Under the pieces are notes generated by a model. It was not told where the DNA came from, searched no databases, and was given only the letters and a program-made list of their open reading frames with translations. Shown piece by piece: positions 16,410-19,539 of a stretch of DNA of 24,424 bases. The DNA lies in the NCBI GenBank assembly GCA_051894015.1, contig JBJFHV010000527.1:1-24424 (forward strand). Reading direction: 5' to 3'. The position numbers and the translations under genes were made by a program. Positions within the stretch are counted from its first letter, which is position 1; each line of letters begins with the position of its first letter. This DNA comes from Acutalibacteraceae bacterium (lineage in GTDB: Bacteria; Bacillota; Clostridia; Oscillospirales; Acutalibacteraceae).

Positions 16410-16439
16410 ATTTTAACACCTTAAAGTGCCGTAAGTCAA
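16410..16439 (-). promoter_or_regulatory. sigmaA promoter of the transporter operon
   Basis: TTGACT-N18-TAAAAT with an extended TG. Confidence 0.65.
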
Positions 16440-16447
16440 TACATACG

Positions 16448-16477
16448 GAATAAATAAAACCGATTTGCGGCATAATA
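16448..16477 (+). promoter_or_regulatory. Candidate forespore sigmaG/sigmaF-type promoter
   Basis: GAATA-N18-CATAATA matches the B. subtilis sigmaG consensus GHATR-N18-CATxxTA. Confidence 0.55.
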
Positions 16478-16526
16478 AAGAAGGAAGAATGAATCTTCTC
16501 AATAACAAATAAGGAGAATAAGACTT

Positions 16527-16679
16527 ATGTCACAGAACAATCAGCAAAACAATCAGCAAAATAACCAGCAAAATAACCAGCAGAACAATGCCCGCAGCCG
16601 TCAGCAGCAAAACGAGCAGAACAAACAGCAGAATAAGCAGAAGAATCAGCAGCAGAACAAAGAAGAAAATCAGTTTTAA
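16527..16679 (+). CDS. 50-aa Gln/Asn-rich micropeptide
   Basis: MSQNNQQNNQQNNQQNNQQNNARSRQQQNEQNKQQNKQKNQQQNKEENQF*. AAGGAG RBS at 16511-16516. Synonymous codon variation between QQNN repeats. Confidence 0.75.
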   Translation: MSQNNQQNNQQNNQQNNQQNNARSRQQQNEQNKQQNKQKNQQQNKEENQF

Positions 16680-16785
16680 GGGTAGGTAACCCCTAAAAAC
16701 ATCCCGGCATTCGTTAGAACACACAACTATGCCAAACGCCTTGAGTTCTTAGAGGCTGTCTGCGTTTCTTTTGCAGATTCAGACC

Positions 16786-16824
16786 AAAAACGCGCCTGTC
16801 GGATTTCGGACACGGCGCGTTTTT
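16786..16824. terminator. Bidirectional intrinsic terminator
   Basis: AAAAACGCGCC-TGTC...GACA-C-GGCGCGTTTTT. Confidence 0.8.
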
Positions 16825-16842
16825 ACCGGCTTTTCATATTTT

Positions 16843-17006
16843 AGGGATCCGCTGAATCCATCACAGTGCACGCTTTATGCACAGTTTACTTGCATATTTC
16901 CGCCATACAGCACAAAGCCCGTTTCAGATCCGACAGAATTCCTGCGCGGCTTTTGTATAATAATCTGACGGCGTAATCTGTACATCAGGTTGAATCAGTG
17001 TTCCCT
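16843..17006 (-). ncRNA. Candidate rod-shaped ncRNA with a central bubble (6S-like)
   Basis: Colinear nested helices read by eye, with G-U pairs favouring the minus strand and a terminator downstream. No promoter found. Confidence 0.3.
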
Positions 17007-18091
17007 TAGGCCCGCATATAAATCTCACGGTCAATAAACTCCTCGGTAAAGCGGTCGAGGGCACCGAAATCCATCGCTTCGGTATAGAAGCTTTCCAGCC
17101 TGTCGTGTGTTTTTTTCGCTTTCGATAACAGTTCGATACTTTCTTTTGTCAGTTCATCGGCCGTTTTCGTTCCGAAGGCAAGACGATTCTTTCGGTCCTT
17201 GAGAACATTGGTAGTGATAAATCTTCTTGCATGAATGAGCCGGTCGAACGGCACGGCAATTTCATGACTGCTCTTGACGGTCAAAAGTGCAAGACTCAGT
17301 TTCGGAATGATGATATGCTCAAACTCGTCGGGCTTCATCGGGCACGGACAGGCGATCACGTCATAGCCGTTTTTCGACGCGGTTTGGGCAATCCGTTCGG
17401 TAAGAATCCCCGAAACGGCACCGTATTCGTCCACAAGGCCGATCACTCTTGAGGCAAGAGCGGTGACGGTTTCATCGAAAAATACGATTCCGTCGGGCGT
17501 GATACCGGATAAGAACCGCCGGCTGATTTTCCCGATCCCTGCGCCCTTGATCCGCGGCGCCTCCCGGGCACAGAATCTTTGGGCGAAGCTTTCCGCTTTG
17601 GCTTCGTCAACGCTTGTTTGTACGATTCTTCTTGTGTCTTCGCTGATTGCGCCGGCTGCGCTGAGATATTGGGTTGATCGGCGGTGGAAAATCGAATTTT
17701 CAATCGAAACCGAGCGAATGAGATCGGCTTTTTCAAAAAGCTTTTCTCTGTCCCAGAATTGCCCGAGATTGATGATGTTTTCCGAAGCACCGGGAAAAAC
17801 CGGCTCGAGTACATGCGGCGCCGTTCCGTCGGCAAGACAAAGACCGAGCTTGGGAATGATCACGCCGTCAAGACTTCCCGGGTCACTGCTGCAATAGATC
17901 CGTTCGGTGTCAAGCGCCAAAGCTTCTGCGGCCTTGGCGACTTTTTTCATAAAAGATGATTTTCCCGTTCCCGGTCCGCCTTTGATAATATACATACGAC
18001 TGTCACGGTACGGATTGTAAAGCTCACTGAAGAGGGAGTGAAACCCGTTTGGTGTATTGGCGCCTAAAAAGCTTTTTATGTGTTTGCTCAT
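17006..18091 (-). CDS. P-loop NTPase (PRK06851-like family)
   Basis: FLGANTPNGF, IIKGGPGTGKS (Walker A), CSSDPGSLDG, DGTAPH. RBS GGGGG before ATG 18091. Confidence 0.8.
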   Translation of the reverse strand: MSKHIKSFLGANTPNGFHSLFSELYNPYRDSRMYIIKGGPGTGKSSFMKKVAKAAEALALDTERIYCSSDPGSLDGVIIPKLGLCLADGTAPHVLEPVFPGASENIINLGQFWDREKLFEKADLIRSVSIENSIFHRRSTQYLSAAGAISEDTRRIVQTSVDEAKAESFAQRFCAREAPRIKGAGIGKISRRFLSGITPDGIVFFDETVTALASRVIGLVDEYGAVSGILTERIAQTASKNGYDVIACPCPMKPDEFEHIIIPKLSLALLTVKSSHEIAVPFDRLIHARRFITTNVLKDRKNRLAFGTKTADELTKESIELLSKAKKTHDRLESFYTEAMDFGALDRFTEEFIDREIYMRA

Positions 18092-18187
18092 ATGATACCC
18101 CCGTAAAAAACGTTCTGTTTTGATTTTCATTTCATTCTATTCACAATGGAAAAGAAACGACACAAAAAACTTGTTTGCAAGCCGCGG

Positions 18188-18265: not shown

Positions 18266-19435
18266 TTATGACGATGAATCATCACCGCTGAGGTCACCGA
18301 GCTTGCCGAGCCATGACAGATTGAAGTAGCTGTAGTTCTTCGGAATTTCAAAAGTTGAATCGGGAACATCGGACGTAATTCTGTTGATGAAAGTCGAGAA
18401 TTCCTGACCCTCGGTATCAATCGAGTCGATTCTTACAAGGGTATCGCCGCTGAAATAGTATTTCATGGTACTGCCGTCTTTTGCTTTGTAGCTTTCACAG
18501 GTGAGCTTCTGACCGTTGATGGTAACATCCGTAACAGTGATATTTTTCGAGTTGAGGTCAGAATCTCCGATGCCTGACATCATGTTTACTTCGTCCATAT
18601 TCATGGATTCACCGAACATATCCTCGGGAAGCTTGCTGTACTTCTTGACGTTATCAATAAGAAGGTACGTCGTATCCTTGCTCTTGATGTAAAGAATTTT
18701 GCATTTGATTTCGCCCATGGTTGCATCCATGATAAAATTGCCGTTCTTTGTGGCAAAAGTAATAGGAGCGTCGCCCATTTCGGGATCGTTGGTGGTAAAT
18801 TCCATCAGATAGGTGTTTGACATAAACAGTTCCTTGTATTTTGCGATTTTATATTCGCTGTTACCGGTTTGATTGCCGGAAGAACTGTTTGTTGTATTTT
18901 GCTGGCCCTGCTGAGTATTGGTGCTGCCTTGCTGAGCGTTGGTAGTGCCCTGCTGAGCGCCGGTTGCGCCCTGCTGAGCGTTGGTAGAACCCTGCTGAGC
19001 GTTGGTGCCGCCTTGCTGCGTATTGGTGCTGCTTTGCTGACCCTGAGAACCGGTATTACTCTGATTCGGCTCGGTTACGACCTGACCGCTGAATTGGTTC
19101 TCGACGACCGTGTCGTTAATCACGGGACCTTTGCTGTTTTGCGGAAGCTGGTTGATATCGACCTGGTCATTGATCTGCGTAACGGTCTCACCGGGCGTTC
19201 CGTCTGCATTGGTGTGAGCCGCATACCGGTCACCGTTTTTATCCGTAACAACGACCATGGTTTCTCCGTCGTCTCCCTTTACAACGCCGTATGCCGTTCC
19301 GTTTGCGTCGGTTACGGTCGGAATAAAGACGGTCGGCTTTTCGCCTCCGGTAAAAAGAAAGACGCATAAAGCACTGACCACAACGACAATAAAAATCAAA
19401 AGACCGAGACAAATCCGCTTTATGATTTTTTTCAT
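18266..19435 (-). CDS. Membrane-anchored extracytoplasmic protein with a Q/G/T/N heptad linker and a beta-rich C-terminal domain
   Basis: GGAGG RBS before MKKIIKRICL, N-terminal TM segment, QQGxTNA repeats. Confidence 0.8.
   Translation of the reverse strand: MKKIIKRICLGLLIFIVVVVSALCVFLFTGGEKPTVFIPTVTDANGTAYGVVKGDDGETMVVVTDKNGDRYAAHTNADGTPGETVTQINDQVDINQLPQNSKGPVINDTVVENQFSGQVVTEPNQSNTGSQGQQSSTNTQQGGTNAQQGSTNAQQGATGAQQGTTNAQQGSTNTQQGQQNTTNSSSGNQTGNSEYKIAKYKELFMSNTYLMEFTTNDPEMGDAPITFATKNGNFIMDATMGEIKCKILYIKSKDTTYLLIDNVKKYSKLPEDMFGESMNMDEVNMMSGIGDSDLNSKNITVTDVTINGQKLTCESYKAKDGSTMKYYFSGDTLVRIDSIDTEGQEFSTFINRITSDVPDSTFEIPKNYSYFNLSWLGKLGDLSGDDSSS
18905..19030. repeat. Six 21-bp tandem coding repeats
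   Basis: GCC(C/T)TGCTGAGCGTTGGT... x6, encoding QQGSTNA-like heptads on the minus strand. Confidence 0.9.
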
Positions 19436-19539
19436 ATTTGTTTCCTCCGTATTTATTGATTTATTAAACAATACACCCTTATTTTAATGCTGATGATTTC
19501 GTATTGTAAATTAAGTGTAAACCCGAACTTAGCCGAAGC

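Follow-up and report, generated by a model that had tools for sequence, protein, structure and literature searches.

The 24,424-nt stretch of Acutalibacteraceae DNA analysed here (hereafter the window) carries a gene for a 50-aa peptide composed largely of Gln and Asn, preceded by a forespore-type promoter. Judging from sequence comparisons, the peptide belongs to a family, not previously described, of 30-72-aa Q/N-rich microproteins of spore-forming Clostridia. Given a promoter of the class active in developing spores, the peptide is probably a small spore protein of a new kind. A literature search found no described Q/N-rich small forespore protein or family. The features of the locus are listed in Table 1.

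Table 1. Features of the microprotein locus in the window.
Feature	Position	Strand	Basis or remark
Sigma-70-like promoter TTGACT-18-TAAAAT with TG, of the divergent MFS/GPH sugar transporter gene	16410..16439	-	context
-35 element GAATA of the forespore-type (sigF/sigG) promoter	16448..16452	+	read directly; identical in four orthologous loci
-10 element CATAATA, 18 nt after the -35, with G before and A after	16471..16477	+	0 mismatches to GNATR-N18-CATNNTA
Shine-Dalgarno (SD) sequence AAGGAG, 10 nt ahead of the ATG	16511..16516	+	read directly
CDS, 50-aa Q/N-rich microprotein	16527..16679	+	ATG to TAA, stop included; orthologues L039/L117, L116, L118
12-bp tandem repeat, 4.5 copies, encoding the (QQNN)n core	16536..16589	+	TRF and codon list
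Copy of a dispersed short intergenic repeat, between stop codon and terminator (3' UTR, outside the gene proper)	16683..16762		sequence similarity
Predicted intrinsic two-way terminator, GC-rich hairpin between an A run and a U run	16785..16830	+	fold prediction; probable 3' end of the transcript
PRK06851-family P-loop ATPase gene ('hypothetical protein' equivalogs), convergent to the microprotein gene	17006..18130	-	profile match

A Q/N-rich peptide with a repeat core

Translation of 16527-16679(+) bore out the original prediction of 20 Gln and 16 Asn residues in 50 aa; the rest of the product comprises four Lys, three Glu, two Ser, two Arg and one each of Met, Ala and Phe. Q and N together make up 72% of the peptide and place an amide nitrogen on 36 of its 50 side chains. 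It is almost wholly polar, with a net charge of +3, 18% charged residues and two hydrophobic residues after Met1, and its longest unbroken Q/N run spans 19 residues. Q/N-rich (prion-like) domains are usually defined by 30 or more Q/N within 80 residues, and this peptide has 36 in 50. Single-sequence AlphaFold2 predicted one helix over residues 4-49 (pLDDT 85.8), a model that is weak for a low-complexity peptide and uninformative on aggregation.

Copies of the 12-bp repeat match at 88% (TRF); two units are identical, and the others differ only at synonymous third positions. These repeats had been read as maintained at the protein level rather than produced by slippage. The synonymous codon variation agrees with the first half of that reading, but the second half did not stand. 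Since TRF found a 12-bp period, two units are identical and the orthologues described below differ by whole 12-nt units, slippage or unequal exchange, on this sequence evidence, acts on the core and is constrained to keep frame and composition.

The reading frame very probably encodes a protein

We searched for orthologues starting from the convergent PRK06851 ATPase. Three sister MAGs with ATPases 86-90% identical were found ('Clostridia bacterium HGM12744', 'Oscillospiraceae bacterium SUG439' and one uncultured Clostridia bacterium), and all three contained a small ORF in the same position convergent to the ATPase. This convergent arrangement is kept at the four orthologous loci and lost in distant relatives with ATPases at most 56% identical. 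The four orthologous peptides, that of the window included, are 50-54 aa long and have in common an MSQN start, a central ARSRQ[RQ]QNEQ and an EExQF end. All four are Gln-rich rather than Asn-rich, and the ARSRQ centre and EExQF end are specific to this lineage.

Pairwise substitutions among the orthologues at first, second and third codon positions ranged from 3/3/11 to 7/4/16 (with 4/3/16 and 5/3/14 among them), a bias to third positions, and synonymous codon changes equalled or exceeded non-synonymous ones in the orthologue pairs. Differences in length were whole in-frame 12-nt units. Similarity collapsed exactly at the stop codon: between the window and L039, identity was ~90% over the upstream 160 nt, ~76% over the ORF and ~33% beyond the stop codon, where the two sequences are unrelated. 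On the opposite strand, no SD-led or conserved ORF was found at these loci; the open antisense frame varies between orthologues, and its openness is a by-product of the CAG/AAC codons.

Because an SD sequence and ATG precede the frame, indels stay in frame, substitutions are biased to third positions, conservation ends at the stop codon and no SD-led antisense ORF exists, we conclude that 16527-16679(+) is very probably a real stand-alone protein-coding gene translated in the plus frame.

Gene boundaries and flanking sequences

Folding of 16670-16835 gave an MFE of -53.2 kcal/mol (z = -3.7), with UUUUU after the last hairpin, and orthologues L116 and L117 have an equivalent predicted terminator hairpin 15-45 nt past the stop. 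The dispersed repeat at 16683-16762 has 12 further copies in the host genome (82-97% identity) and also occurs in genome G017; it is found on short high-depth contigs in pig and gut metagenomes. It is missing at the 3' position in L116 and L117, and a related copy lies in the 5' UTR of L118. A second stretch of dispersed repeat occupies 16837-16998 of the window. Further along, 18266-19471(-) encodes a 401-aa membrane-anchored protein without a Pfam family, in which a long T/N/A/Q/G low-complexity linker of TNAQQG-like units is followed by a C-terminal domain.

A family of Q/N-rich microproteins in Clostridia

Runs of twelve consecutive [AC]A[N] codons were present in 50 of the 117 species genomes of the host genus, and in the loci returned by this pattern the runs lay in SD-led ORFs of 35-55 aa, some Gln-rich and others Asn-rich. 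We collected 39 family peptides from the host genus and at least seven other families of Clostridia, almost purely Q/N/K/R/E in makeup. As a check, the original prediction had proposed looking in spore-forming Clostridia for Q/N-rich small ORFs with the same promoter; upstream of the family collected here by codon pattern, the forespore consensus is enriched (see below).

Composition was tallied for 30 of the 39 peptides; the nine added later reach 72 aa. The tallied peptides are 30-58 aa long, with 47-92% Q+N (41% N, 33% Q, 9% K, 4% E, 4% S and 4% R overall) and a net charge of 0 to +6, and hydrophobic residues, Gly and Pro are nearly absent. Half of them (15/30) have a C-terminal F or Y and 12/30 end in K or R; several homologues finish in QQNY- or NNNY-like tails. 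GGAG, GAGG or AGGA lies 5-15 nt before the ATG in nearly all members, L179 and L180 having AAGG only. Gene neighbours differ between members, and synteny is confined to close orthologues. Since composition and charge are maintained even though length, repeat number and Q:N ratio change freely from member to member, we infer that the family is under selection on bulk properties rather than on exact sequence.

Conventional searches gave little trace of these peptides. The window peptide matched no Pfam or NCBIfam profile (hmmscan with it and three homologues, none at E<=10) and no PDB sequence. A homologue search of a protein collection with the peptide produced 342 word-sharing candidates, none at E<=0.01. 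A four-row protein profile run over 300 genomes of the host's taxonomic family recovered only the window itself, low-complexity filters removing matches. An exact look-up of five family peptides in a collection of 15 billion proteins found none of them (0/5), so gene callers evidently skip these ORFs. The ESM Atlas contained three clusters of 38-44-aa hypothetical proteins (scores 0.92-0.94). Of the sequencing runs searched, none contained above 7% of the words sampled. The sole RNA run matched, a rhizosphere metatranscriptome, is uninformative on expression: its match comes from another organism, since it covers 40 nt of CAG/AAC tract and then continues into unrelated sequence. An SD+ATG+8xMAN pattern applied to 401 class genomes was too noisy, matching Lys-rich N-termini, S14 and IF-2, and was kept out of the counts.

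Two loci of family f38, L096 and L108 (genomes G563 and G449), encode a 97-101-aa protein with a Gln-rich N-terminus, a QQQQ tail and a conserved helical domain ILEDM.NYE.LYYKKLDMY..., whose sole profile match is a weak one to DUF2383 (E = 0.055). This is a different family sharing a Q-rich start.

A forespore-type promoter precedes the gene

The AAGGAG ribosome binding site and the upstream GAATA-N18-CATAATA announced in the original prediction were both found, at 16511-16516 and 16448-16477. The promoter match ends 49 nt upstream of the ATG. The 129 nt between the microprotein gene and the divergently oriented MFS/GPH transporter gene accommodate this forespore-type promoter on the plus strand and the sigma-70-like one on the minus strand. 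All four orthologous loci have retained the forespore-type promoter unchanged, although insertions have entered the surrounding sequence; in L118, ~190 nt of dispersed repeat has entered the 5' UTR, and the intact GAATA-N18-CATAATA was found at -243. Chance matches of this quality are rare. The whole 2.45-Mb genome has only 21 occurrences of strict GAATA-N17/18-CATNNTA, counting both strands, perfect GNATR-N17/18-CATNNTA lies 15-130 nt upstream of 0.15-0.4% of the host's SD-led genes, and the forespore consensus arose in 0.3% of shuffles of the microprotein upstream region (p = 0.003).

The match had been attributed to the sigG consensus. That it is a non-trivial forespore-type match, kept at four loci, stood, but sigG cannot be told from sigF by sequence, since the two consensus sequences overlap (PMC3789822) and the -10 element is flanked by a G upstream, as is typical for sigF, and by an A downstream, as is typical for sigG (PMC3789822). 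A regulon study found the C. difficile forespore consensus very similar to that of B. subtilis (PMC3789822). In the host itself, the regions upstream of gpr, spoVT, spoVAC and sspA fit the canonical consensus worse than that of the microprotein gene, having 1-2 mismatches or unusual spacing, which cautions against reading forespore promoters of this host by the canonical rules.

We then compared the regions upstream of one representative from each of 21 family lineages with shuffles, using the B. subtilis forespore consensus and counting lineages at p<=0.15. GNATR-N17/18-CATNNTA was enriched (10/21 lineages, binomial P = 4e-4). No enrichment was seen upstream of the same 21 lineages for the consensus sequences of sigA (4/21, P = 0.39), sigE (3/21, P = 0.63) or sigK (1/21, P = 0.97). 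A clade-adapted consensus, GWATA-N17/18-HAWAMTA, trained on the 21 lineages, reached p<=0.15 in 5 of 9 held-out lineages (binomial P = 0.006).

Association with sporulation

The host is an uncultured gut organism represented by an 85% complete MAG of 557 contigs and 2.45 Mb. The original prediction had tied its case to a host with spo0A and sigG, and the assembly indeed has the genes of a spore former: GPR (313 bits), SpoVT, SpoVAC/AEB, a SigF-like sigma factor, SigE, SigK in two pieces, and one alpha/beta SASP gene (PF00269) on contig C224, away from the microprotein locus. Spo0A is represented by its C-terminal 97 residues, at a contig edge, and SigG by a 32-aa fragment scoring best as SigG at the edge of contig C173 of this incomplete MAG. 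The N- and C-terminal pieces of SigK lie on C487:1321-1566 and C74:2149-2448, and an assembly break or a skin-like intervening element is possible.

Among 401 genomes of the class sampled at a completeness of 90% or more, GPR was present in 306 of 399 (77%). We scanned 52 GPR-negative Clostridia and the first 52 GPR-positive ones with the twelve-codon pattern and inspected every match. Free-standing Q/N small ORFs occurred in 11/52 GPR-positive and 0/52 GPR-negative genomes (Fisher P = 2.7e-4, on genomes that are phylogenetically non-independent); the Q/N runs of the GPR-negative genomes lie inside IF-2 and other long proteins. Counted by family the contrast is 7 of ~34 against 0 of 5. It is suggestive but not independent, because the GPR-negative genomes span only five families. 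From the promoter and its conservation, we consider it likely that the microprotein gene is expressed in the forespore under sigG and/or sigF.

Comparison with SASPs

That Clostridia are generally reported to lack gamma-type SASPs, as the original prediction stated, agrees with the literature (PMC8452069, PMC3533761). The gamma-type SASP is regarded as a store of amino acids drawn on during outgrowth (PMC8452069, PMC10730256). The microprotein had been called non-homologous to this class, and profile searches concurred: gamma-type profiles (PF04259, TIGR01442) matched neither the peptide nor three homologues at E<=10, PF04259 found nothing in the whole genome at E<=1, and NCBIfam returned no gamma-type SASP. 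The alpha/beta-type profile PF00269 did not match the peptide either.

The GPR cleavage site has the motif E-F/I-A-S/N/Q-E. A regex search for the strict site was negative for all 39 family peptides (0/39), and the earlier remark that no GPR motif is visible was right for the window peptide. A looser [EQ]F[AS]x[EQ]L, which we take to resemble the SASP cleavage site, is absent from the window peptide and occurs in four distant members, L058, L101, L177 and L199. L101, L177 and L199 (family f23) have a conserved island outside low complexity, N[VL]QF[SA][DE]EL[SAV]PNN, and L058, from the host genus, has AEFSQQL. If GPR cuts this island, the four would be closer functional analogues of the gamma-type SASP.

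Like SspE, the gamma-type SASP of Bacillales (PF04259), the microprotein is small, built of repeats, strongly hydrophilic and rich in Gln/Asn, with a promoter of the forespore type, and the sequence of SspE is highly variable between species, as in the microprotein family. Unlike SspE, to which it has no sequence similarity, it is shorter, has no E-F/I-A-S-E site, is far more extreme in composition (72% Q+N, with almost no G, A, T or F) and comes from Clostridia, a group reported to lack SspE (PMC3533761). It shares with minor SASPs and other small sigG-dependent proteins (SspH, SspI, Tlp) a length below 60 aa and a forespore-type promoter, here a predicted one; unlike the microprotein, those proteins are not low-complexity Q/N peptides, and Pfam and NCBIfam searches link it to none of them. 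Most minor SASPs are of unknown function, and a few occur in clostridia (PMC3533761). By profile and by GPR site, the microprotein thus falls outside the gamma-type SASPs, but by analogy may work like one.

Alternative explanations

The strongest alternative is a real small protein that is not specific to spores: a disordered hydrophilin, or a basic peptide associated with nucleic acids or the ribosome, made in vegetative or stressed cells, with a forespore promoter match that is fortuitous or served by another sigma factor. About half of the family lineages have no good forespore consensus, net charge is consistently 0 to +6, and the presence of GPR in 77% of sampled Clostridia makes co-occurrence easy to obtain. 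We nevertheless regard this explanation as unlikely, given a consensus that is perfect here, conserved in the orthologues and enriched in the family where that of sigA is not, and the lack of free-standing members in the 52 GPR-negative genomes scanned.

A functional amyloid, polar-zipper gel or condensate former, akin to yeast prion domains or the repeats of C. difficile GerG, appears improbable. Its appeal lies in a Q/N content far above the 30-in-80 threshold, the 19-residue Q/N run and the QQNY- or NNNY-like tails of several homologues, together with the gelling in vitro of the Asn-rich GerG repeats (PMC5241399). GerG is likewise a clostridial spore protein with a low-complexity Asn-rich sequence that self-associates in vitro and is PLAAC-positive (PMC5241399). 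GerG is far longer (its PLAAC-predicted prion-like domain alone covers aa 43-270), embeds its GMPNNMSNNMNSNM repeats in other sequence, is confined to C. difficile, acts on Csp incorporation and has no homology to the microprotein; moreover, the repeats are dispensable for GerG function (PMC5241399). Compared with yeast-type Q/N-rich prion domains, whose usual threshold it far exceeds, the microprotein is only 50 aa long, has 18% charged residues in a family of net charge 0 to +6, and almost lacks the G, S and Y typical of such domains. The predicted AlphaFold2 helix, weak as it is, also speaks against a beta arrangement.

It is highly improbable that the locus is no gene at all but an A-rich microsatellite-like repeat open by chance, or that the real product is a Leu/Val/Ile-rich one encoded antisense. 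The 12-bp tandem repeat, the failure of gene callers to call the ORF, the absence of exact sequences from the 15-billion-protein collection and the lack of HMMER relatives would fit such an origin. They are outweighed by the SD sequence and ATG ahead of nearly every family member (two with AAGG only), by the substitution, indel and stop-codon evidence given above, and by the fact that 16527-16679 is the sole Q/N-rich small ORF of the 2.45-Mb host assembly. The antisense ORF was ruled out: it has no SD-led start, and its open frame is not conserved across orthologues.

Attenuator leader peptides show an extreme bias to particular amino acids, as does this peptide, but a leader peptide or uORF sensing Gln/Asn-tRNA supply and controlling a neighbour gene is scarcely credible and was rejected, since the PRK06851 ATPase gene downstream is convergent and lies on the other strand, a dedicated promoter and a plain terminator bound the small ORF, neighbours differ among family members, and no co-directional downstream gene with alternative terminator/antiterminator structures was seen at the locus.

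Discussion

On balance, we favour the microprotein as a forespore-made hydrophilic protein of the spore core that would serve as a Gln/Asn depot and/or polar matrix. Forespore RNA polymerase carrying sigG and/or sigF would transcribe the gene, and its product, small and hydrophilic, would build up in the spore core, where selection would act on its composition and not on its exact sequence. It could then form a depot of amide nitrogen and amino acids, freed by proteolysis at germination, and, alternatively or additionally, a polar matrix in the dehydrated core. Since it has no canonical GPR site, another protease would be needed to break it down. The microprotein would be analogous, not homologous, to the gamma-type SASP of Bacillales. 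The storage or protectant role itself, drawn from composition alone, is put forward tentatively.

A bolder proposal, which we offer as speculative, is that the family fills the vacant place of gamma-type SASPs in clostridia: made in the forespore in large amounts, it would be a store of Gln/Asn with an origin independent of SspE, supplying amide nitrogen and amino acids at germination. Such a protein may also aid vitrification of the core, and its breakdown may fall to another protease than GPR, or to GPR itself acting at the relaxed QF[AS]xEL site of those members that have one.

Textbooks and reviews describe clostridia as having no gamma-type SASP, and so raise the question of what, beyond the alpha/beta SASPs, feeds the early outgrowth of their spores. 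Microproteins made almost only of Q/N, widespread but never annotated and with predicted forespore promoters, would be a concrete candidate for that supply. The family also points to a blind spot, in that low-complexity genes dropped by gene callers and HMM searches are lost both to protein databases and to the sequence sets that metaproteomics searches.
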